Shown piece by piece: positions 518 to 38,889 of a stretch of DNA of 64,000 nt. The stretch comes from an uncultured virus (IMG/VR IMGVR_UViG_3300028561_000554) (taxonomy: Duplodnaviria > Heunggongvirae > Uroviricota > Caudoviricetes): the IMG/VR virus record IMGVR_UViG_3300028561_000554; one strand, written 5' to 3'. Position numbers and translations under genes: made by a program. The notes below the pieces were generated by a model. The model did not search any database and was not told the origin of the DNA. It was given only the letters and a program-made list of their open reading frames with translations. The first letter of the stretch is position 1; the number at the start of each line of letters is the position of its first letter.

Positions 518-2446
518 ATGACTATATATCTTGACAGAGGACCGTTTCTCACCATTCCCGATAAGCTGCATCCGGGACAGTACAGAGTGATCCGTAACCC
601 CGACTGGCACGGAGAACTGCCGGAGATCGTGTCCTTCACCGATTTTCTCAAATGGAACTACACACTGGAGTACGGTCAGTATATCCGAAAACTGCACTGC
701 TATCGTCGGCTTCCGCTGCCGTGGGGCGTTCCACAGGATGCCGAGATCGAAACTGTCATCATCGAGGAAGGCAGATATGACCGCATTGATCACGATTCCT
801 TTGATATGTATGTGATATGCGATGTCGTGTTCGAGATGAACGGCTGCCGGCAATGCCAGAAGTATATCTTGCACGGCTTCTACTGCTCTTACGGCGGTTC
901 AGACTTTCTGTGCGGTGCGGAGCTCTACAATGGTCAGTTTATCCGGCTGAACAATCCCTTAGATGAGTTTCTGGTTCCCATCCTTTCAAAGAAAGAATTT
1001 GAGAGCATTGCACAGGATATCCTCAACAGCTACTATTCATATAAGTCGAATTATCCCTGCCGCATCAATACTGCTTCGATTGCAAAGGCTATGGGGCTTG
1101 ACATCAAGTATGCCCGACTGTCAAAAAACGGAAATGTCAAGTCCAAGCTGATCCTGGACAAGCGGGATACAACCGTCTATGATAAGGAATGCAAAGCTGT
1201 CAAAATGCGGATCGACAGTCCTACGATCCTTGTGGATGAGTCTCTGGAGGAGGAAGAAGCACAGAACGCTATTATTCATGAGTGCGTTCATGCTTACCTT
1301 CACAACCTCTTCTATGAGCTGCAGAGCTACTATCGGAAAATGGTCGGCAGGAAGATGCCGGAGTTCAATGACTACTTCTATTCCAAGACGCAGCGTAGCT
1401 GCCTGAAATGGATGGAAACACAGGCAAATGCCATCCCACGCTTTATTCAGATGCCGGAGGAACAGACATCCGAGGTCATCCTGAACTTCTTCGAGCGACT
1501 GCCCGGTGAGCCTGACTGGGACGATTACAGAGAACTGATTGACCTTGTGAAATGGAAGTTCGGAGTATCCCGCAACGCTGCGAAGAAGCGTATCATCGAG
1601 CTTGGCTGGCCGGAAGTGCGCGGTGTGTATGTCTACAACACCACAGGATATGTCGAGGACTACGATGTCAAACTGAAATTCCCGGATGACTATACCTATA
1701 CACTGTCGTTCCGCCATATTTCGGATGTGTTCGCATCCTGCGAGACCTTTGCAGAGCTTGTCCGCTCCAAGAAGTTCATCTATCTGGACGGTCATGTTGT
1801 CATCAACAGCGACAGGTATATCCGCAAGGAACATGGCATCGCTATGGGATTGACGGAGTATGCAAGACACCACATGGCAGAGTGCTGTCTGGATTTCAAG
1901 CGTATCTATGCGGAATTTGACTACAGCTATACCTATGGTGAGCTGCACAAGGACGACCTGACCGAGATCACGGCCGAAAACCGGTCGTTCAGTGATGAGC
2001 AGCGAAAGAAGATCCGCATGGCAATGTACGAGATCTCTGAAGAAAACGATAAGCTCGCTAAACCTTCAGAAGTTAACGAATTCGGCAAGGCGGTGCGATT
2101 CCATATGGAAAGATGCGGCGTTACCTCGGATCAGGTCGCTGACCGCAGCGGTATGGGTGTGAACACAGTCAACAAGATGCGCAGCGGTAAAAAAGTGAAA
2201 CTTGAAACGGTGCTGGCGTTCTGTGTGGCTTTGGAACTTGAGGAGTCGTTTCGTATCGACCTTATGCAGAAGGCAAAGGTCGAATATGATATGAGCAATC
2301 CCGCCCACCAACTCTATGTCACGATTTTTGAGCTGATAGAGAAACCAAATGTGTTCCAGATCAATGATCTGCTTAAGTCAGAGGGCTTTACGCCGTGGAC
2401 GAGAGATTGTGAGGAAAAAAAGCGGTACGCTAAGAAAAGTATGTAA
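518..2446 (+). CDS. ImmA/IrrE-type metallopeptidase fused to C-terminal XRE HTH
   Basis: AIIHECVH (HExxH), WMETQAN, FGVSRNAAKKRI; C-terminal 'VTSDQVADRSGMGVNTVNKMRSG' HTH; GGAGG RBS. Confidence 0.8.
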   Translation: MTIYLDRGPFLTIPDKLHPGQYRVIRNPDWHGELPEIVSFTDFLKWNYTLEYGQYIRKLHCYRRLPLPWGVPQDAEIETVIIEEGRYDRIDHDSFDMYVICDVVFEMNGCRQCQKYILHGFYCSYGGSDFLCGAELYNGQFIRLNNPLDEFLVPILSKKEFESIAQDILNSYYSYKSNYPCRINTASIAKAMGLDIKYARLSKNGNVKSKLILDKRDTTVYDKECKAVKMRIDSPTILVDESLEEEEAQNAIIHECVHAYLHNLFYELQSYYRKMVGRKMPEFNDYFYSKTQRSCLKWMETQANAIPRFIQMPEEQTSEVILNFFERLPGEPDWDDYRELIDLVKWKFGVSRNAAKKRIIELGWPEVRGVYVYNTTGYVEDYDVKLKFPDDYTYTLSFRHISDVFASCETFAELVRSKKFIYLDGHVVINSDRYIRKEHGIAMGLTEYARHHMAECCLDFKRIYAEFDYSYTYGELHKDDLTEITAENRSFSDEQRKKIRMAMYEISEENDKLAKPSEVNEFGKAVRFHMERCGVTSDQVADRSGMGVNTVNKMRSGKKVKLETVLAFCVALELEESFRIDLMQKAKVEYDMSNPAHQLYVTIFELIEKPNVFQINDLLKSEGFTPWTRDCEEKKRYAKKSM

Positions 2447-2462
2447 AAACAGCGAAATATGG

Positions 2463-2495
2463 TTTTTTTAGGAGGCTTTCGGGCCTCCTTTTTTT
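2463..2495. terminator. intrinsic terminator
   Basis: AGGAGGC-tttcgg-GCCTCCT hairpin followed by a T run. Confidence 0.85.
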
Positions 2496-2961
2496 ATGCT
2501 CTGAACTATTTTTCGTGTAGCCCCCAGAAAAAATGGGGGCGATTTGCGTTTTTGAAACAGTTTAGAAATAGAATATTCATAGAATATCCATTTAATTTAG
2601 ATGTTATGAATAAATACAGATTGACATAAGAAGCCATTACAGGCATAGTGCATAAAAAACAGCCCCCGTTTTTTATGTATGTAAAAGATGAATGGGATAT
2701 GTTATGATATAAACACAGTCAAGGACAGGCACCACCTTCCAAAGACTGAAAACAACACTTCACGCCGGATGCATACGGCAGTGGATGTTCATACAAGCTA
2801 CTACATCTTGTAGTCATAGGCTCGAACTATACCTACAAGCACAGGATATATGGTTAGTAGCTGTATGTTCTCCCTTCGTATGCATCCGGCTATTTTTGTA
2901 GCTACTGGTCGGCGGCATACGTCGCTACAATAAACCGATATCCAGAAAGGAAGTACCTATC

Positions 2962-3426
2962 ATGAAAAACTCTACTGCTGCTCAGACTGCAAAAGTGTCC
3001 ACAATTGTGGACAAAAAGACCGTTTACATCTGCAGCCCCCTCCGCCCGGTTTCCACCGATCCTATCCTCCGCGCCAACGAGCTGATCGACAATCTGAAGC
3101 TCGCCAAGGATGCCTGCACGTTCGCCGCACTCCGTGGCTGTGATCCGGTTGCACCACATCTCTTCTATCCGCAGTTCCTGAACGATGATGACGAGTTCGA
3201 GCGTGCGCTCGGCATGGAGCTGGGGCTGAAGGCTCTCAGATGCTGCGATGAACTGTGGATCATCAGTCCGAGAATCAGTTCAGGTATGAGCGCAGAGATC
3301 AAGGAAGCTCTGAAGTGTGGTATTCCGGTGCTTGTGTTCACTGCCGCTGGGTTCCGTGAGTATAAAGGTTCAGGCGATATGACCGACAACTGCTATGCCG
3401 ATGTTGCTGACGGCGTGATCGACTGA
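2962..3426 (+). CDS. DUF4406/nucleoside 2-deoxyribosyltransferase-like phage protein
   Basis: VYICSPL, APHLFYPQFL, CDELW, ISSGMSAEI motifs. Confidence 0.7.
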   Translation: MKNSTAAQTAKVSTIVDKKTVYICSPLRPVSTDPILRANELIDNLKLAKDACTFAALRGCDPVAPHLFYPQFLNDDDEFERALGMELGLKALRCCDELWIISPRISSGMSAEIKEALKCGIPVLVFTAAGFREYKGSGDMTDNCYADVADGVID

Positions 3427-3441
3427 AGGGAGGAAACGAAT

Positions 3442-4191
3442 ATGGCTAAGAAGAGAATGGGCATATACAACCGCGAGGTAAATGGTATAAAGCAGAACGC
3501 TGCCCCTGCAAAGGCGAAAAGTAAAATCGTCGCATTCAATGACAAGTTGACTCTCAGAGAGCTGCTGACAATGATCACCCCCACCAGAGGGGCGTCGCTC
3601 CCGACGCGAAAGGCGCTGAAGTCCTCCTTTGAGCCTATCGCCGTCTACTGTACCAGAAACTTCTGCCTGTCGATCTATGAGAATGGTTTTGCGCTTGCAG
3701 AGGCTTGGAAGCGTTATGCTGTGTTCCGTGTGGACAGATGCAAGGAGTATCACTACGACACCGAGCATGATAAATTGGTAAATCAGAGGAATAGCGCAAC
3801 AAAACCGGATATCACATTCGAGGAATTCCTCGATGAGCCGTGGACGGTGAGACTCCTGCTGACCGCCGAAGACAAGCTGGAGGAAAATAACGATATGGCG
3901 GCACGCAGGGCAATTTCTGAGCATCCGTCAATTGCTTCTGACGTTCAGCAGTATAACAGATACGTTCACGGTGAATCTGTTGAGAATCTGGTGCTGGGGA
4001 AGATGTGTGCTATGGAAACACTGAATACGCTGACAGATCGTCAGAAGGAGGCGATGATCCTATATCATGTAGAAGGTTATACGCAACAGGAGATCGGCAG
4101 GATGCTTGGCATTTCCACAACTGCAGCAAGAGACAGAATCAATGCCGGTATCAATAGACTCCGTAAGTATCTCTATGAGGTGGAGGGTTGA
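3442..4191 (+). CDS. sigma-70 region 4 domain protein
   Basis: LTDRQKEAMILYHVEGYTQQEIGRMLGIS. Confidence 0.8.
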   Translation: MAKKRMGIYNREVNGIKQNAAPAKAKSKIVAFNDKLTLRELLTMITPTRGASLPTRKALKSSFEPIAVYCTRNFCLSIYENGFALAEAWKRYAVFRVDRCKEYHYDTEHDKLVNQRNSATKPDITFEEFLDEPWTVRLLLTAEDKLEENNDMAARRAISEHPSIASDVQQYNRYVHGESVENLVLGKMCAMETLNTLTDRQKEAMILYHVEGYTQQEIGRMLGISTTAARDRINAGINRLRKYLYEVEG

Positions 4192-27233: not shown

Positions 27234-27858
27234 TCTTATAAAAAGTATCGGCTACGACCAAGGCGAGATCCTTCGCAACATTCTAAAACTCCATGTGCCG
27301 GAGGGAAAGATCGACTGTGATCCGACTTTCAGCACTGGGGCTTTCTACAACGGAACAGGCATTGCTATTCCGCTGTACCGATTTGATATTTCTCCGCAGC
27401 GGAGCGATGTAGTACAAGCAGATGCCCGAAATCTTCCGCTTGCAGACAGCAGTATTTCCTGCATGATGCTCGATCCGCCGTTTTTAGCGACAAAGGGGAA
27501 ATCACTGAGAAGCGGTAAAGGCAATATCATCAACAGACGTTTCGGTGTATATCCTGATGAGAAGAGTCTGCATCGGTGTTATGAGGAGATGCTTGCGGAA
27601 GCGTACAGAGTACTGAAACCGGACGGCATTCTGATCTTCAAGTGTCAGGATAAGGTCAGCAGCGGCAAGCAGTATATGAGTCATGTGTATATCATAAACG
27701 AGGCGGTACGGATAGGCTTTTACCCAAAAGACTTGTTTATCTTGCTTGCAAAAAGCCGTCTGGTAGCCGGTTGGCAAAGAAATCAAAAACATAGCCGAAA
27801 GTATCATAGTTACTTTCTGGTATTTCAGAAAAATAACAGGCGTATTGAGTACGTCTGA
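27226..27858 (+). CDS. small adenine-type DNA methyltransferase
   Basis: DPTFSTG, DARNLPL, LDPPF, EAYRVLKPDG. Confidence 0.8.
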   Translation: MSDLIKSIGYDQGEILRNILKLHVPEGKIDCDPTFSTGAFYNGTGIAIPLYRFDISPQRSDVVQADARNLPLADSSISCMMLDPPFLATKGKSLRSGKGNIINRRFGVYPDEKSLHRCYEEMLAEAYRVLKPDGILIFKCQDKVSSGKQYMSHVYIINEAVRIGFYPKDLFILLAKSRLVAGWQRNQKHSRKYHSYFLVFQKNNRRIEYV

Positions 27859-27871
27859 GTTTGGAGGTAAA

Positions 27872-30800
27872 ATGGAACAGAATAAACTGACGCTTGGCAG
27901 CCTGTTTGACGGCTCGGGCGGATTTCCACTTGGCGGCATTCTTGCCGGAATAGAGCCGATTTTCGCATCAGAAATTGAACCTTTTCCAATTCTAGTCACG
28001 CACAAACGACTGCCGGGCGTAAAGCACTACGGCGATGTATCCAAACTCAGCGGCACAGAGTTGCCACCGGTGGATATCATCACGTTCGGCAGTCCATGTT
28101 TTCCAGAGGGTACTCTTGTACTGACTGATGAAGGGTATATGCCAATTGAAGAAGTTACAGTTGGTATGAAGGTTCTCACACATAAGGGGAGATGGAAAAC
28201 CGTAACTGCTGCCGGTGCAAAATACGGAGAGACTGTTCTACTAAAGGGTAACCACTATGGCTTGGAATGCACAAAAAACCATCCGATTTACAGCAGCGGT
28301 GAAAAAAAGTTTTTTCCCCAGCTTGGAAATGGAAAACGAGGAAATTACACACTGTTGACTGATAAAAAAGAGTGGGTAGCGGCAGAGCAGATGAAAGGTA
28401 GACTGTGGGCAGTTCCACATCATATCGATAGTCTGCCTATTGCCTCGCCTGTGTATTCAGGCTCATGGCGACAGAAAACCATGCCAGAACTGTCAGACAG
28501 CTTGTTCTATTTTGTTGGCAGATGGCTCGGTGACGGATGGGTATGCAACGGTCAGCGATCAGGTCGTCCTGCAGGAGAAACTTACGGTAAAATATATCTG
28601 TGTGATTCTCTCGATAAAGAAAACGAACTGATCAGTACAGTTCGTACAGTTACCAAGAGGTATACGGTCTGCCATGAAAAAAGTATAGTCAAGGTATCAT
28701 TTGTCTCACAGGTTTTTGCTGAATGGCTGACAGATAATTTTGGTGAGTATGCATCAGGCAAAAGAATGCCCGGATGGGCGTTTGGTATGCCGTTCTCCTA
28801 TAAACAGAGCTTGCTGAAAGGTATCATTGATTCTGACGGAAGTCCCGTTGCCGGAAAAGATAACTGTCACAGAATCTCAACTATCAGCAAAGCTCTTGCA
28901 GAAAGTGTCCGCCTTCTTGCAGAAGGTCTGGGATACTCAACAACTGTTTTTAAGAGCGTAGTCGATAAAACAAAGAAAATCGAAGGTAGGATCGTAAATC
29001 AGCATGACTACTATACTGTAGCAGTGACGAAAGAAGGCAGGCGGAAACATCTGACAGACAGTTTACACGGCTGGTATCGAGTGCGGAGCGTATATCCGAC
29101 TCATAAAGCAAAAGTTGTATACAATCTGACTGTGCAAGATGACAACAGCTATATCGCAGATGGTATCGTTGTTCATAACTGTCAGGACCTGTCTATCGCC
29201 GGAAAACGTGCAGGAATTCACGGCAATCGGTCAGGATTGTTCTTTCAAGCAATCAGAATCATCAAAGAAATGAGGAATGCTACAAATGGCAAATATCCAA
29301 GATACGCAATCTACGAAAATGTCCTTGGTGCCTTCTCCTCAAACGGAGGAAATGATTTCAAAGCTGTCCTCGAAGCAGTTATCGGAGTTAAAGAAGAAGG
29401 GATCGAGGTGCCTCCGCCTAAGAATCACCGATGGCCGAAAGCGGACGTATATCTGGGAGACGGATGGAGCGTGGCTTACCGAGTTTTCGACGCTCAATAC
29501 TGGGGCGTCCCCCAGCGAAGATCAAGAATCTACCTTGTCGCAGATTTTGCTGGCGGAAGTGCCGGAGAAGTATTATTTAAGTCCGAGGGCGTGTCTGGGT
29601 ATACTCCGCAGAGCTTCCGTTCGTGGGAAGGAGCTGCCGGAGGTGCTGAAGAAAGCTCTGGAACGGCAGGCAGGCGGTCTGACGCTGGAGATAGAACCTA
29701 CTGCCTGAATACACAAGGCAACAGCGGTGTTGGCATCACCGAAGGCAAGTCGCTCGCATTAGTCTCGCAAGACCATGGCAATCATCCGGCGGTACTTCAT
29801 GCCGCAGGCTTCTCCACGGAACACAGCGCAAAGGCGCGGAGTATCGGCTATGAGGAAGAAGTATCTCCGACTTTGAGAGCCGGTGTTGTTCCGGCAGCGC
29901 TTTCCGTGGAAAATCATCCGACAGACGGTCGGGTGAAGATCCGTGAGGATAACACCTGCCAGACACTTTGCAGCAGAGCCGGGACAGGCGGCAACAATGT
30001 ACCGCTTGTGGCTGAACCAATCACGCTGAAAATACGCTGCGGTAAACCGGGTGGTGGGAAAGGAGCGCAGGTCACTTATGATAAGTCATCAACATTGTCA
30101 ACAAACAACGACCAGACGCTATTTCAGCCCGAAATAAAGGCATTCGGTGTATGCAGTAAGCATTCCAATGCGATGATGTCGGACAACCCGCACAGCGGTT
30201 TTTATGAAGCGACCACAAGCAGAACCCTTGACCAGAGCGGCGGAAACAGCGTCACATCGAATCAGGGCGGAATCTGTGTGGTTGCACCTGCGCCAGAAAC
30301 CTACGATGTACGTTTCACATCGGACGGCACGAAAAACGCAAGAGGTCACTGCTATCCTACAGAAATCTCACGCTGTCTCGATACAAGCGAAAGCAATCCC
30401 GACAGCAACCACGGCGGTGTATGCGTGGTCGCTCTCGAACCCGGTGCGGCATCGAGAGTCGGCGGTCATATCTACAGCGACGGTAAATCCGGTACGCTCC
30501 GAGCCAATGCAGGAGATAATCAGCAAGCTGTCATGATGCCGGAGACTTATTCGCTGCAAGGCTCGATGATAGGTCGTGCAGATAAAAACGGCCCGCAGGG
30601 TGACGGTATTAATAAAGATGTGTGCTTTACCTTAAACTGTGCAGATCATCACGCAGTTGCGGCACCGGCTGATTCCTCCTATACAATATCCCGTGACAAT
30701 CACTTCGCTGTTGCCGAAGATGTATCTGTAACGGCAGTGGCAAGAGGTCCTGCAACTGTGGCGCACCCGGAAGCCGACCACTACAGCACAAGCAAAAATT

Positions 30801-31249
30801 CTCATCACACCGTTGCCGCACATGAACAGGCAAATACACTGGTCGCATCGGACTGGAAAGATCCTCCGCTTGTCAACGATACGCCCAATCAAGAACCGGC
30901 ATACATCGTCCGCAGGCTAACTCCGGTGGAATGTGCAAGATTGCAGGGCTTTCCCGACTGGTGGTGTTCTGATCTCGCAATTTCCGATCCTTCTGATGAT
31001 GAAATTGCATTCTGGACGGAAGTCTGGGAAACTTGGCGCAGCCTCACAAATCCCAATGGCAAACCAAAAACGGAAAAGCAGATCAGAAAATGGCTGGCTG
31101 ATCCGTATACGGATAGTGCGGAGTATAAATTGTGGGGAAATGGAATTTCATTGCCGATAGTTTTTTTCGTTCTATCCGGTATTGTTTGGGCAGCGAATGC
31201 AGCAAATTGTGAACGAACTGATACTATGTTATTTTCCGAATTCACATAA
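27872..31249 (+). CDS. C5 cytosine DNA methyltransferase with intein and long variable region
   Basis: LFDGSGG (I), GSP|CQD (IV), YENV (VI), PQRRSR (VIII), RRLTPVECARLQGFPD (IX), KLWGNG (X). Confidence 0.93.
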   Translation: MEQNKLTLGSLFDGSGGFPLGGILAGIEPIFASEIEPFPILVTHKRLPGVKHYGDVSKLSGTELPPVDIITFGSPCFPEGTLVLTDEGYMPIEEVTVGMKVLTHKGRWKTVTAAGAKYGETVLLKGNHYGLECTKNHPIYSSGEKKFFPQLGNGKRGNYTLLTDKKEWVAAEQMKGRLWAVPHHIDSLPIASPVYSGSWRQKTMPELSDSLFYFVGRWLGDGWVCNGQRSGRPAGETYGKIYLCDSLDKENELISTVRTVTKRYTVCHEKSIVKVSFVSQVFAEWLTDNFGEYASGKRMPGWAFGMPFSYKQSLLKGIIDSDGSPVAGKDNCHRISTISKALAESVRLLAEGLGYSTTVFKSVVDKTKKIEGRIVNQHDYYTVAVTKEGRRKHLTDSLHGWYRVRSVYPTHKAKVVYNLTVQDDNSYIADGIVVHNCQDLSIAGKRAGIHGNRSGLFFQAIRIIKEMRNATNGKYPRYAIYENVLGAFSSNGGNDFKAVLEAVIGVKEEGIEVPPPKNHRWPKADVYLGDGWSVAYRVFDAQYWGVPQRRSRIYLVADFAGGSAGEVLFKSEGVSGYTPQSFRSWEGAAGGAEESSGTAGRRSDAGDRTYCLNTQGNSGVGITEGKSLALVSQDHGNHPAVLHAAGFSTEHSAKARSIGYEEEVSPTLRAGVVPAALSVENHPTDGRVKIREDNTCQTLCSRAGTGGNNVPLVAEPITLKIRCGKPGGGKGAQVTYDKSSTLSTNNDQTLFQPEIKAFGVCSKHSNAMMSDNPHSGFYEATTSRTLDQSGGNSVTSNQGGICVVAPAPETYDVRFTSDGTKNARGHCYPTEISRCLDTSESNPDSNHGGVCVVALEPGAASRVGGHIYSDGKSGTLRANAGDNQQAVMMPETYSLQGSMIGRADKNGPQGDGINKDVCFTLNCADHHAVAAPADSSYTISRDNHFAVAEDVSVTAVARGPATVAHPEADHYSTSKNSHHTVAAHEQANTLVASDWKDPPLVNDTPNQEPAYIVRRLTPVECARLQGFPDWWCSDLAISDPSDDEIAFWTEVWETWRSLTNPNGKPKTEKQIRKWLADPYTDSAEYKLWGNGISLPIVFFVLSGIVWAANAANCERTDTMLFSEFT
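28097..29179 (+). mobile_element. intein (361 aa) with LAGLIDADG endonuclease at the catalytic Cys of the MTase
   Basis: GSP|CFPEGT...CTKNHP...VGRWLGDG...LKGIIDSDG...VYNLTV..GIVVHN|CQDLS. Confidence 0.95.
29277..29708 (+). CDS. overlapping alternative-frame ORF inside the C5 MTase (possible beta-like polypeptide)
   Basis: 143 aa in the +1 frame with TLSQIL..VPEKYYLSPRACLGILRRA..RGKELP; GAGG 10 nt before an in-frame ATG at 29286. Confidence 0.5.
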   Translation: MLQMANIQDTQSTKMSLVPSPQTEEMISKLSSKQLSELKKKGSRCLRLRITDGRKRTYIWETDGAWLTEFSTLNTGASPSEDQESTLSQILLAEVPEKYYLSPRACLGILRRASVRGKELPEVLKKALERQAGGLTLEIEPTA

Positions 31250-35752: not shown

Positions 35753-36223
35753 GTGGCTGTGAGAGGAAGAAAACCCAAACCTACCGCCATGAAAGAACTG
35801 GAAGGCAATCCGGGCAAGCGACAACTAAATGCATCCGAGCCGAAGCCAGTAAAAAAAGCCCCGCCCTGCCCGAAATGGCTTGAACCCGAAGCAAAAAAGG
35901 AATGGCGCAGGCTGTCAAAGCAGCTTGAACAGATCGGCGTTCTGACCGAGGTCGATCAGGCGGCATTTGCGTCCTATTGTCAGGCATATGCCCGTTGGAA
36001 GGAAGCCGAGGAATTCATGACGCAGCACGGCACTATCGTCAAAACGAAATCCGGCTACTGGCAGCAAGTTCCGCAGGTATCCATCGCACAAACTTATCTG
36101 AAAATCATGAATAAGATCGCAGAGCAGTTCGGACTGACACCGGCGGCAAGAAGCCGTATCACTGCCGGTGCGGAGATGAAGGACGCTTCCGATGATATGG
36201 AAAAACTGCTCGGAGGTGGATAA
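35753..36223 (+). CDS. terminase small subunit, P27 family
   Basis: RGRKPKPT..GNPGKR, AKKEWRRL, FGLTPAARSRI; GTG start. Confidence 0.93.
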   Translation: MAVRGRKPKPTAMKELEGNPGKRQLNASEPKPVKKAPPCPKWLEPEAKKEWRRLSKQLEQIGVLTEVDQAAFASYCQAYARWKEAEEFMTQHGTIVKTKSGYWQQVPQVSIAQTYLKIMNKIAEQFGLTPAARSRITAGAEMKDASDDMEKLLGGG

Positions 36224-38889
36224 TGGCGAGAACCGCAAAAGCAAGAGAAAGACCGAAAAATTATCCGAAGCTGACAGACTACAATCCCTCACGCTTCATG
36301 CTGCCGGATTCGCACTACGATGCAGAAAAGGCAGACAGGGCTGTTCGTTTTATCGAAAACCTCTGCCATACCAAAGGTCGCTGGGCGGGTAAACCGTTCT
36401 GGCTGCTGCCTTGGCAGGAGCAGATCATACGGGATATTTTCGGTATCGTCAAGGAGGATGATACACGGCAGTTTCGGACGGTGTATGTCGAGATCCCTAA
36501 GAAAAATGGAAAACAGCTTGCATTGGATACACCTATCCCGACTCCGCAGGGATTCACCAATATGGGTGACCTGAAAGTCGGTGATACTGTATTTGACGAA
36601 AACGGTAAGCCGTGTCATGTCATTGCGAAAAGCCCTGTAGATGATACGGAACAAGCGTATAAGTTGACTTTCAAGGACGGCAGTTCGATCATTGCAGGAG
36701 AACGGCATTTGTGGAATTGCCAGTATATTTACGGAAAACGCAGAGATGTCCTGTGGACAACGGGTGAAATATATCGCCGAACGACGGAATATAGGGAACG
36801 GTTTTCTGACAGACCGCAGGCATTCAGAGATTCACTTATCAGAATCCCTGTTTGTGGTGTGCTTCAAACAACAAAGGCTGACCTTCCCGTTGATCCATAC
36901 CTTTATGGCTACTGGCTCGGAAACGGCAATGCAATGAAGCCGGAGATCACGATAAGAACGGAGGATGTTGATGATGTAATATCGTTTATCCCGTATAAGC
37001 CACACAATCGTTATCCGCAGAAATGCGGCGGCAGCGAAATTGTAAAATACAATGAGCTGAAACCAATATTGCTGGATTCATTTCGTGAAAAGAGAATCAG
37101 ACCTGAGTATCTGAGAGCATCAGAACCTCAGCGATGGACGCTCCTACAGGGGTTAATGGATTCAGATGGCTGCATAGGTGAGCGTAAGGGTCAAAGTGTA
37201 TATGTTACCACATTGCAGGATCTTGCGCTATCTGTCCGAGAACTGCTGTGGTCACTCGGAATCAAAAACGCAGTCAAATGCGAACCTTCTACGCGGCATG
37301 GTTGGCCTACCGGCGAAATACTGTATATCATTCGTTTCACCACTTTCGATAATCAGCCAACAACAAGACTGATAAGAAAAGGTGTAAGATCACGCATGAG
37401 GACAAGAGATACACGTTCCTGCTATCATTATCTGCTGGATATTCAACCTTTGGATTATCCTGTGAAGATGCAGTGCATTCAGGTGGACAGCCCAAGTCAT
37501 CAATATCTCGCAGGTACTTCAATGATACCTACGCACAACAGTGAGCTTGCCGCAGCGATAGCGCTGTATCTGCTTTACGCCGACAACGAGCCATCCGCCG
37601 AGGTATACGGTGCGGCAGCAGACCGTCAGCAGGCTTCTATCGTGTTTGAGGTTGCAAAGCGAATGGTAGAATTAACGCCTGCGCTCCTGAAACGCTCCAA
37701 AATTATGGCGGCAACAAAGCGGCTTGTGAACTACAGCAATGTGGGATTTTATCAGGTTTTATCGGCGGAAGTCGGAACAAAGCACGGTCTGAATGTATCT
37801 GGGCTTGTTTTGGATGAGCTTCATGTGCAGCCTAATCGAAATTTAGTGGATGTTCTCACAAAAGGTTCCGGCGATGCACGTACTCAACCGCTGTACTTTC
37901 TTATCACAACTGCCGGAACTGACAGGAATTCTATCTGCTTCGAGTACCACACAAAAGCGCAGGATATTCTGAAAGGACGGCGCATTGATCCGTCTTTTTA
38001 TCCGGTTATTTATGGGCTTGATGACGGCGACGACTGGAACGCAGAAGAATCGTGGTACAAAGCAAATCCCTCGCTGGGTCATACTATCACAATTGACCGT
38101 GTGCGGGATGCGCACCGTGAGGCACTCACAAATCCGGCGGAAGAAAATGTATTCCGTCAGCTTCGTCTTGATCAATGGGTTGGCAGTTCAGTTGCATGGA
38201 TTCCGGAGCATATTTACGACAAAGGAAATATTCCGATTGATTTGGAATTGCTCCGTGGGCGAGAGTGCTATGCAGGACTTGATCTTTCCAGCACAAGTGA
38301 CATAACCGCTTTTGTACTGGTGTTTCCACCTCTCCACGAGGGTGATAAATACATCGTTGTTCCTCATTTCTGGCTGCCGAGGGATACGCTCAACCTACGT
38401 GTCCGCAGAGATCACGTTCCCTACGATGTGTGGGAGCGAATGGGACTTTTCCACATCACAGAGGGCAATGTTGTGGACTATAACTTCGTGCGAAAAACGG
38501 TCAACCAACTGCATGAGATCTATAACATCAAAGAAATCGCAGCAGACCGCTGGAATGCCACACAGCTAATTACCGATTTACAAGGCGATGGATTTACCGT
38601 TGTTCCTATGGGAATGGGCTTCAAAGATATGTCGCCGCCGATGAAAGAGCTGTACAAGCTGCTGTTAGAGGGAAAATTTATTCACGGCGGCAATCCTGTT
38701 TTGCGGTGGATGGCTGGAAATGTTGTTGCGGAAATTGATGCGGCGGAAAATATCAAGCCGAGCAAGAAAAAATCCACTGAAAAAATAGACGGCATTGTGG
38801 CATGGATCATGGCGCTTGATCGCTGTATCCGTCATGAGATGCAGGGCAGCGTTTATGATGATCCCGACCATGATCTGGTCATTATTTAA
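36223..38889 (+). CDS. terminase large subunit with intein
   Basis: PWQEQII, PKKNGK|SELAA Walker A, LDELH, GLDLSST.D, KIDG.VA. Confidence 0.95.
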   Translation: MARTAKARERPKNYPKLTDYNPSRFMLPDSHYDAEKADRAVRFIENLCHTKGRWAGKPFWLLPWQEQIIRDIFGIVKEDDTRQFRTVYVEIPKKNGKQLALDTPIPTPQGFTNMGDLKVGDTVFDENGKPCHVIAKSPVDDTEQAYKLTFKDGSSIIAGERHLWNCQYIYGKRRDVLWTTGEIYRRTTEYRERFSDRPQAFRDSLIRIPVCGVLQTTKADLPVDPYLYGYWLGNGNAMKPEITIRTEDVDDVISFIPYKPHNRYPQKCGGSEIVKYNELKPILLDSFREKRIRPEYLRASEPQRWTLLQGLMDSDGCIGERKGQSVYVTTLQDLALSVRELLWSLGIKNAVKCEPSTRHGWPTGEILYIIRFTTFDNQPTTRLIRKGVRSRMRTRDTRSCYHYLLDIQPLDYPVKMQCIQVDSPSHQYLAGTSMIPTHNSELAAAIALYLLYADNEPSAEVYGAAADRQQASIVFEVAKRMVELTPALLKRSKIMAATKRLVNYSNVGFYQVLSAEVGTKHGLNVSGLVLDELHVQPNRNLVDVLTKGSGDARTQPLYFLITTAGTDRNSICFEYHTKAQDILKGRRIDPSFYPVIYGLDDGDDWNAEESWYKANPSLGHTITIDRVRDAHREALTNPAEENVFRQLRLDQWVGSSVAWIPEHIYDKGNIPIDLELLRGRECYAGLDLSSTSDITAFVLVFPPLHEGDKYIVVPHFWLPRDTLNLRVRRDHVPYDVWERMGLFHITEGNVVDYNFVRKTVNQLHEIYNIKEIAADRWNATQLITDLQGDGFTVVPMGMGFKDMSPPMKELYKLLLEGKFIHGGNPVLRWMAGNVVAEIDAAENIKPSKKKSTEKIDGIVAWIMALDRCIRHEMQGSVYDDPDHDLVII
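36514..37539 (+). mobile_element. class-3-type intein (342 aa) starting with Gln, with LAGLIDADG domain
   Basis: NGK|QLALDTP...ERHLW...LQGLMDSDG...MQCIQVD...IPTHN|SELA. Confidence 0.92.

Follow-up and report, generated by a model that had tools for sequence, protein, structure and literature searches.

Does the +1 reading frame inside a phage methyltransferase gene encode a protein, and if it does, what could that protein contribute to the enzyme? The question is raised by a stretch of 64,000 nucleotides from an uncultured virus of the class Caudoviricetes (IMG/VR record IMGVR_UViG_3300028561_000554), hereafter referred to as the window. Its gene for a C5 cytosine DNA methyltransferase, the main open reading frame (ORF), contains a 143-codon ORF in the +1 frame, and a preliminary description made from the letters of the sequence had proposed that this nested ORF is a second gene overprinted on motifs VI to VIII of the methyltransferase. 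The ORF map and the motif coordinates bear out that location: the N-terminal two thirds of the nested ORF overlap motifs VI to VIII of the main frame (29312..29548). The interpretation that we consider probable is that the nested ORF encodes an independently translated subunit, which carries the segment that follows motif VIII in single-chain enzymes and docks on the main chain to form a heterodimeric enzyme. Translation, binding and a requirement for activity are what we infer from the conservation of the nested ORF, the selection acting on the +1 frame, the conserved start codon and the homology of the encoded segment.

The frame and the stop codon of the nested ORF stand as first described; its start does not. 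An ATG at 29277 was rejected as the start codon because the column is not conserved among 60 unique relatives, which have A in 33 cases and G in 27. The ATG at 29286-29288 is conserved in the same set (A in 59/60, T and G in 60/60), as is G29275 of the GAGG sequence that precedes it (59/60). Because the conserved start is the ATG at 29286, the nested product is likely to have 140 amino acids (29286..29705, followed by the stop codon). Among 148 distinct relatives the nested start is ATG in 143 and GTG in one, and synonymous choices in the main frame hold it in place: Asn before Gly is encoded by AAT in 128 of 128 cases, and Asp by GAT in 15 of 15. The GAGG sequence is held by the Arg codon AGG of an E-M-R motif in 144 of the 148 relatives. 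For comparison, the main ORF of the window uses AAT 31 times and AAC 20 times, and AGG makes up 6 of its 53 Arg codons. Phages P1 and CP-T1 have a GGAG sequence 8-9 nucleotides 5' of an ATG in the nested frame. The nested gene has, in other words, both a conserved start codon and a ribosome-binding site, and ribosomes would start at the internal GAGG-N10-ATG that the synonymous codon choices of the main frame keep in place. On short contigs, gene callers have predicted exactly the 140-residue protein many times; where a copy of this prediction is named, which is seldom, the name is 'hypothetical protein', and no copy contains a Pfam domain.

The distribution of the nested ORF was examined with a tblastn search of 50,697 phage records (E ≤ 1), which gave a match to the +1 ORF in 230 records; a relative of the main frame is found in 488 phage records. 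The best matches were from gut Heliusvirales phages (67% identity, E 2e-38) and Streptococcus Javan phages (50%, E 1e-26), and further ones from phage P1, Mycobacterium Omega-like phages, Vibrio CP-T1 and Pasteurella Pm86. When nine annotated records were examined, the match proved to lie in frame +1 relative to the methylase coding sequence (CDS) in eight (P1 dmt, Javan105, Javan25, CP-T1, Pm86, Porcelain, Saumur and NatCom_17901). The ninth, Bacteroides phage BT12, has a weak match that is in frame within a small single-chain methylase. Across the eight records the stop-free +1 stretch extends over 135-168 codons, but over 85 in Saumur, and the nested ORF is annotated in none of them.

A set of homologues chosen without regard to the nested ORF was obtained by fetching IMG/VR loci with the main-frame peptide of 29180..29602; 80 loci were kept, with 72-91% main-frame identity. 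Frequent stops in the +1 frame, which the preliminary description had envisaged as a sign against a gene, were not seen in them: a +1 match is present in 80/80; in 77 of them the frame stays open for 135-150 codons between stops, and in the other 3 the available sequence ends within it. In a library of 1.84 billion representatives, 3313 clusters match the nested protein at E ≤ 0.001. Judged from these comparisons, the layout is spread over hundreds of phage and prophage methylases, in phages of Firmicutes, Proteobacteria and Actinobacteria, P1 dmt included.

Some of the annotated records deserve comment in their own right. In phage P1 (NC_005856.1), the dmt gene contains a 162-codon +1 ORF (2273..2761 of locus L003, 66713..67201 of the record) that ends in ...LSQVLEQTSIPQRYFLSSKACAGILRRGEKRRKSLPPLLQMALQ and is absent from the 23 features annotated in that stretch; the note on dmt in the record says that it methylates cytosine only 'perhaps'. 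For the methylase of Mycobacterium phage Porcelain (L004, 2089..3289), the annotation gives two CDS that differ in frame (2089..2928 and 2897..3289); the nested ORF (2264..2737) shares the frame of the second CDS but is not annotated, and makes a third reading. Clostridium phage Saumur (L086, 1796..2731) has an annotated 'DNA-cytosine methyltransferase' without motifs I-VI, and begins with a sequence that resembles the N-terminal part of the nested protein and runs in frame into motif VIII; from its sequence it is probably a rearranged or decayed copy.

Selection acting on the +1 frame was assessed from the entropy of each codon position in the 60 unique sequences. From 29180 to about 29540 the most variable position is the third position of the main frame. 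In 29570-29690 variability is highest instead at the first position of the main frame, equivalent to position 3 of the +1 frame: main-frame positions 1, 2 and 3 have entropies of 0.62, 0.00 and 0.13 bits at 29600-29629. Ordinary third-position variability returns after 29690. The third positions of conserved four-fold degenerate main-frame codons tell a similar story: the 12 codons ahead of the nested ORF have an entropy of 1.55 bits, the 18 in the N-terminal part of the ORF 0.93, the 25 in its core 0.56 and the 13 beyond its stop codon 1.41, with values of 0.00, 0.00 and 0.12 at the sites 29408, 29411 and 29417 under the nested strand CLRLRI. Synonymous variation of the host gene is, in short, suppressed within the bounds of the nested ORF, where the periodicity is that of the nested frame, and the two-frame codon comparison proposed in the preliminary description comes out in favor of a second coding frame.

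A comparison of frames between distant relatives points in the same direction. When the 150 nucleotides that follow motif VIII in the window were translated in the +1 frame and in frame 0 and aligned to those relatives, the alignment with P1 scored 108 (z 18.4) in the +1 frame versus 28 (z 2.4) in frame 0. The corresponding scores were 117 versus 44 for CP-T1, 102 versus 40 for Pm86, 112 versus 59 for Porcelain and 183 versus 80 for Javan105. The earlier impression that the main frame is poor in information over the 3' half of the nested ORF is supported by both the codon-position variability and the frame comparison. On these sequence data, the +1 frame is under purifying selection as a protein, and we regard it as a conserved nested gene, not a product of chance.

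Depletion of stops was tested by shuffling synonymous codons of the main frame and counting the stops that appear in the +1 stretch. In the window, 2.56 stops were expected on average and none is observed (P = 0.047); P values were 0.0017 for Javan105, 0.011 for P1, 0.0006 for CP-T1, 0.002 for Pm86 and 0.0008 for locus L206. One may ask whether the openness of an untranslated ORF, and its similarity between phages, could be a shadow of the main frame or the trace of a nucleic-acid signal. Some similarity in the +1 frame must indeed follow from the strong conservation of the main frame over motifs VI-VIII; shadows of this kind include the TGA that delimits the ORF on its 5' side and a portion of the 'GKM' motif, and stop tests on single sequences are weak for some members. 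However, a shadow does not account for variation that follows the pattern of a +1-frame protein in 29570-29690, with the first positions of the main frame free, nor for the better conservation of the +1 translation, relative to frame 0, in phages of Proteobacteria, Firmicutes and Actinobacteria. With a start codon held by synonymous choices and a sequence homologous to a real protein segment, we find an untranslated ORF hardly credible.

What does the nested gene encode? The family consensus reads M..(9)GKM..E.S......TS..S.K....L.L....G......WE.DG...GE..T.N.GESP....ES.LSQILE..VPEKYYLS.KAC.GILRRA..RGK.LP..L..ALE.QA., and its nearly invariant residues lie mostly in the last 60 positions. When a profile of 62 nested proteins was aligned with the methylase of phage BT12 using hhalign, the probability was 95.1% (E 3.2e-8), and nested residues 67-117 paired with BT12 residues 175-225, directly after BT12 motif VIII. 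Because of this alignment, we consider that the nested gene encodes the segment that normally follows motif VIII, and the remark in the preliminary description that L..IL...V.EKYYLS occupies that place in frame in other enzymes holds for this one single-chain example. The BT12 enzyme (L089), a single chain of 307 amino acids, has the same segment as the nested family, FLRDVLQSEVPEKYYLSDKMITCLTRHADKRG; the difference is that its segment stands in frame directly after motif VIII (QIRKRIYWTN), with no overlapping gene. In solved C5 methylases the segment after motif VIII opens the small, target-recognition domain. Domain libraries were less informative: the best Pfam match of the nested protein was LPD15 (E 0.18), and 2 of the 62 family members touch PF00145 weakly; in PHROGs there was a single weak match, of a relative, to phrog_16143 (E 0.005), and in NCBIfam there was none. 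In the main frame, the bases shared with the conserved part of the nested gene encode an open, poorly conserved linker. The conserved main-frame 'ILFxxEG', which falls on the bases of KYYLS, may be a shadow of the latter.

An enzyme that lacks this segment in its main frame might also acquire it by ribosomal frameshifting or transcript slippage: a single shift would give a truncated chain with motifs I-VIII and the segment, and a second shift back would give a canonical chain. Such a +1 shift followed by a -1 shift would restore the order motif VIII, segment, recognition domain. Support could be seen in database proteins of about 247 amino acids in which motifs I-VI are followed by the nested domain (P0174, P0010) and in one, P0081, in which motifs IX-X come after motifs I-VI and the nested domain; in addition, a run of G7, G8 or G9 in one lineage changes the frame that continues after the nested domain. 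In 29180..29760, however, neither frame contains a -1 slippery heptamer (X XXY YYZ), frame 0 has no stop or pause codon, and homopolymers do not exceed C5, the search for non-canonical +1 sites not being exhaustive. No programmed frameshift site is recognizable, and the 3' junction (29660-29690) is variable and gapped. The fused proteins are mostly singletons, possibly indel errors or pseudogenes, and those of the P0081 type are without motif VIII. Frameshifting is not favored, and it leaves unexplained the conserved Shine-Dalgarno sequence and ATG, 80 codons 5' of the conserved domain, and the open frame in between: such a start would be pointless. We therefore consider frameshifting very unlikely. 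Where the preliminary description had offered a heteromeric or frameshift-dependent enzyme, the first half fits the comparative evidence and the second finds no signal in 29180..29760.

Fused forms of another kind do exist in relatives. In the proteins P0206 (164 member sequences) and P0254 (15 contigs), the nested domain is in frame with the recognition modules and motifs IX-X, in canonical order, and a short alpha ORF followed by an overlapping ORF with the nested domain, recognition modules and motifs IX and X is found in 8/79 loci. Most other fused database proteins are single sequences on single contigs and may be errors. We rejected the idea that fusion is the normal, in-frame arrangement: such proteins are mostly singletons, and the populated ones belong to lineages with a different frame after the nested domain.

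In lineage L170-L191, near-identical phages differ by a run of G directly behind the nested domain (L174, 3369..3380; the same site in L170, L173, L175, L176, L190 and L191). With G7 the main frame is continuous, as in the window; with G8 the nested ORF is fused to the recognition and IX-X part, a layout that resembles that of M.AquI; and with G9 both are broken. These differences admit two explanations, as they could reflect phase variation or homopolymer assembly error. Two other arrangements were noted. In four contigs of 111-141 kb (L220, L225, L226 and L227), main and C-terminal ORFs are in the same frame with a stop between them at about 3534..3537, which may be a recoded stop or the mark of a decaying gene; in the sister contigs L224 and L228-L234, the two ORFs are in different frames. 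Proteins P0061 and P0124 consist of the nested domain, recognition modules and motifs IX-X followed by a second motif I (GSLFDGIGGF...); they stem either from read-through of tandem methylase genes or from a permutation.

Association of the two chains was examined by structure prediction for a relative, L206, whose 392-amino acid main chain and 131-amino acid nested protein were each supplied with an alignment. The pair scored 0.76, 0.76 and 0.78, versus 0.10 for the best of three controls; the same mark is reached by 116 of 157 solved complexes and by 2 of 215 mismatched pairs, counts that hold only roughly for a pair predicted with its own alignments. The runs share at least 70% of their contacts, the partner has a predicted local distance difference test (pLDDT) value of 69, and the interface comprises 276-298 contacts. 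In the contacts of highest confidence in the predicted complex, the Y-Y-L of the nested KYYLS lies against residues 290-294 of the main chain (the IVRRLT strand of motif IX), and the nested CL.L strand (41-45), which matches CLRLRI of the window, contacts residues 167-171, in the loop or hairpin between motifs VI and VII; further contacts involve motif VIII and a recognition module. The model supports binding of the nested protein to the main chain. An AlphaFold2 (AF2) model of a natural fused form, P0042 (241 amino acids), had a mean pLDDT of 60.7, with the recognition region below 50, and was too poor for comparison with solved methylases.

Binding to the methylase might also serve another end. 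The nested protein could be translated and act as a modulator of the timing or activity of the enzyme or of its choice of target among the numerous recognition modules, or it could have a separate job, such as DNA binding by its basic helices. The evidence for translation and selection fits a modulator equally well, the main chain keeps all numbered motifs I-X, the 80 N-terminal residues of the nested protein are without counterpart in single-chain enzymes, and its conserved C-terminal part is a basic two-helix hairpin, the two helices of the conserved core having pLDDT values above 90 when the protein is modelled alone. A mere modulator is harder to reconcile with a conserved half that is homologous to an integral segment of a single-chain enzyme, at a place where the main chain is an unconserved linker. 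Natural fused forms, moreover, place the nested domain canonically, ahead of the recognition modules, and the large interface predicted includes strand pairing with motif IX. We consider a modulator or a separate function unlikely.

If the nested protein is a subunit, as we propose, the enzyme might be assembled as follows. The C-terminal 60 or so residues of the nested protein (LSQIL..VPEKYYLS.KAC.GILRRA..RGK.LP..L..AL) would provide the post-motif-VIII segment that opens the target-recognition domain of single-chain enzymes. The main chain does not contain that segment; read in its frame, the same bases give an unconserved linker rich in Gly, Ser and Ala, which would do no more than carry the open frame from motif VIII to the recognition modules. 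The KYYLS strand of the nested protein would pair with the motif IX strand, its two helices would contact motif VIII together with the recognition region, and its N-terminal hairpin would meet the loop that separates motifs VI and VII. Activity would reside in a heterodimer of the main chain and the nested protein, and in the window the excision of an intein from the main chain would also be needed.

Several points weigh against this interpretation and must be considered together. Stop depletion is marginal in the window and weak in Porcelain (P = 0.09) and L001 (P = 0.16); because P values are marginal or non-significant in some members, the openness of any single copy is weak evidence alone. 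Two further sets of loci agree with the set selected by main frame: one, fetched from IMG/VR with protein P0023, contains relatives of 46-55% with the nested layout, open in 75/80 and cut in the other 5, and the other has the match in frame +1 to the main frame in 76/79. The queries for both included the nested domain, however, which biases the sets in its favor. Locus counts in general are not independent events, because the loci are phylogenetically related. Homology to the canonical segment is based on one single-chain example, and the main-frame 'ILFExEG' could be conserved for a role of its own. Searches of the Protein Data Bank with the nested protein gave chance-level rows only, by sequence and by profile, and a Foldseek search of the same database with its AF2 model gave no match with E ≤ 0.001. 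Folded alone, the nested protein has a mean pLDDT of 68.6, and most of its 90 N-terminal residues are below 70. The pair that was modelled is that of L206, not that of the window, the two nested proteins being 47% identical, and the score of the complex may come from the model's memory of single-chain methylase folds. Lastly, binding alone would not establish that the small protein is needed for catalysis.

The coordinates of the locus are collected in Table 1. Assignment of the main ORF to the C5 family is based on a match to the Pfam profile PF00145 (E 1.2e-32, 114 bits versus a curated cut-off of 22) and on the presence of motifs I (FxGxGG), IV (PC), VI (ENV), VIII (QxRxR), IX and X. Its true start is likely to be the ATG at 27872 (MEQNKLTLGSLFDG...), as judged from the N-termini of relatives. 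Every numbered motif from I to X is present in the main chain, motif IV being split by the intein, and motifs IX and X lie in the main frame, as had been described. Of the 80 loci selected by their main frame, 70 have the motif IX/X region within the main ORF, and for the remaining 10 the retrieved DNA gave no match to the C-terminal part.

Table 1. Features of the methyltransferase locus, with positions counted from the first nucleotide of the window
Feature	Position	Strand	Remarks
Main ORF, C5 cytosine DNA methyltransferase	27845..31249	+	1134 codons including the intein; PF00145 match
Intein, main-chain amino acids 85-445 (361 amino acids), with LAGLIDADG homing-endonuclease domain	28097..29179	+	Domain matches
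Shine-Dalgarno-like GAGGA	29272..29276	+	From main-frame codons ATG AGG; 10 nucleotides before the nested start
Nested ORF as first noted	29277..29708	+	143 codons, frame +1 relative to the main ORF
Nested gene from the conserved start	29286..29708	+	140 codons and TGA stop
Motif VI (ENV), main frame	29312..29335	+	Motif location
Nested strand CLRLRI, amino acids 42-47	29409..29426	+	Main-frame four-fold sites almost invariant
Motifs VII-VIII, main frame	29465..29548	+	Motif location; invariant columns
Conserved core of the nested protein, amino acids 82-128, STLSQILLAEVPEKYYLSPRACLGILRRASVRGKELPEVLKKALERQ	29529..29669	+	Nearly invariant columns, hhalign, frame comparison
Main-frame linker, amino acids 569-619, AGGSAGEVLFKSEGVSGYTPQSF...RRSDAGDRTY	29549..29701	+	Same bases as the nested gene; open, poorly conserved
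Motif IX, main frame (RRLTPVECARLQGFP)	30911..30955	+	Motif location
Motif X, main frame (GNGISLP)	31136..31156	+	Motif location

The presence of an intein in the methylase, also part of the preliminary description, is upheld by matches to Hint_2 (E 6.4e-7), Hom_end (2e-5) and LAGLIDADG_3 (7.2e-5) that span amino acids 84-445 of the main ORF; the Intein_splicing profile gave 24.2 bits, under its curated cut-off of 35.8. The hallmarks of an intein with a homing endonuclease are all found: a Hint fold, an N-terminal Cys, a His-Asn end followed by Cys, and a LAGLIDADG insert. The insertion separates Pro from the catalytic Cys in motif IV (FGSP, then C...VVHN, then CQDLSIAGKR). The intein runs from Cys85 to His-Asn445, and Cys446, the first residue of the downstream extein, doubles as the catalytic nucleophile of the methylase, the Cys in motif IV. 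Judging from these junctions, the main chain must splice out the intein to rebuild the Pro-Cys catalytic motif. The intein is absent from most relatives, and in intein-less ones the region of motif IV reads FGSPCQDMS; L033 and L035 (with 1038-codon main ORFs) and L006 may also have an intein.

Between the linker and motif IX (29700..30900), the main chain contains by eye a long run of short 'TL/CL...G' modules: CLNTQGNSG, TLCSRAGTGGNN, TLDQSGGNS, CLDTSESNP, TLRANAGDN, FTLNCADHH and NTLVASDWK. In appearance they are akin to the target-recognition modules that multispecific phage methylases carry in tandem. M.SPRI and M.Phi3TI are multispecific C5 methyltransferases of temperate Bacillus phages, and the run of TL-type modules is the feature that the main chain of the window appears to have in common with them. 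To our knowledge, no nested gene has been described for enzymes of this type.

Neighboring genes encode a ParB-methylase, a phosphoadenosine phosphosulfate (PAPS) reductase, two more N6/N4 methylases, an antirepressor, an amidoligase, the large terminase and a portal protein, and because of these neighbors we place the methylase gene in a prophage. A megablast search of phage records with the whole gene gave no match. The large terminase (36223..38889, 888 amino acids) matches LAGLIDADG_3 at amino acids 307-370, ahead of its ATPase domain, which suggests from the sequence a second intein in the same prophage.

How does the nested gene compare with known two-chain methyltransferases? The closest known case is M.EcoHK31I. 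According to two papers (PMC2836561, PMC3404938), its alpha gene also contains, in a different frame, the coding sequence of the beta chain, which is made from internal starts and is needed for activity; beta carries motif IX, and alpha has motifs I-VIII, motif X and the recognition domain. Structural information on M.EcoHK31I is described as lacking (PMC2836561), and the Protein Data Bank contains no entry for it. Both systems encode a second polypeptide wholly within the large methylase gene, in another frame and with an internal start, and this polypeptide carries a piece of the C5 fold, which makes M.EcoHK31I a heterodimer and would make the enzyme of the window one. The parallel is one of architecture only: motifs IX and X of the window are in the main chain, and the nested protein corresponds to the segment after motif VIII, not to motif IX. 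The position of the overlap also differs, since it covers motifs VI-VIII and the linker in the window but lies inside the variable region only in M.EcoHK31I, as does the status of the two chains, whose joint requirement has been demonstrated for M.EcoHK31I and is deduced for the enzyme of the window.

The other precedent is M.AquI, a split C5 methyltransferase in which alpha has motifs I-VIII and beta has the distal variable region and motifs IX-X (PMC3404938). The likeness resides in the break after motif VIII, and some relatives of the window have exactly that layout. The window itself does not have motifs I-VIII and IX-X on separate polypeptides: a single main ORF covers I-X, with just the post-VIII segment set apart, so that a large chain is accompanied by a small, insert-like subunit. 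No description of the nested ORF was found in the literature searched, which included PMC8788219 and PMC12707154 and largely fell outside subscription journals. What sets the window apart from M.EcoHK31I is that the nested chain carries a different segment, that the main chain keeps all numbered motifs, and that the arrangement is widely spread among phages.

A broader proposal, which we put forward tentatively and with somewhat less than even confidence, is that a widespread clade that includes P1 Dmt may consist of obligate two-chain enzymes with a +1-frame subunit that has never been annotated, and that the lineages with a G tract may be phase-variable between layouts and an 'off' state. 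The notion of an obligate subunit can be tested directly in Escherichia coli with dmt of phage P1. Should the enzyme require the small protein, the annotation of hundreds of phage 'DNA cytosine methyltransferases' would be missing one subunit, and synthetic, codon-optimised, recoded or truncated versions would lose that subunit silently and yield an inactive enzyme. The consequences would reach the expression of phage methylases, the prediction of their targets and the engineering of phages and plasmids to evade restriction. The nested gene would also be a textbook-quality overlapping gene of a bacterial virus with a clear origin: an ancestral in-frame segment would have moved out of frame and been kept by an internal start, and the host frame would have overprinted a linker on it.

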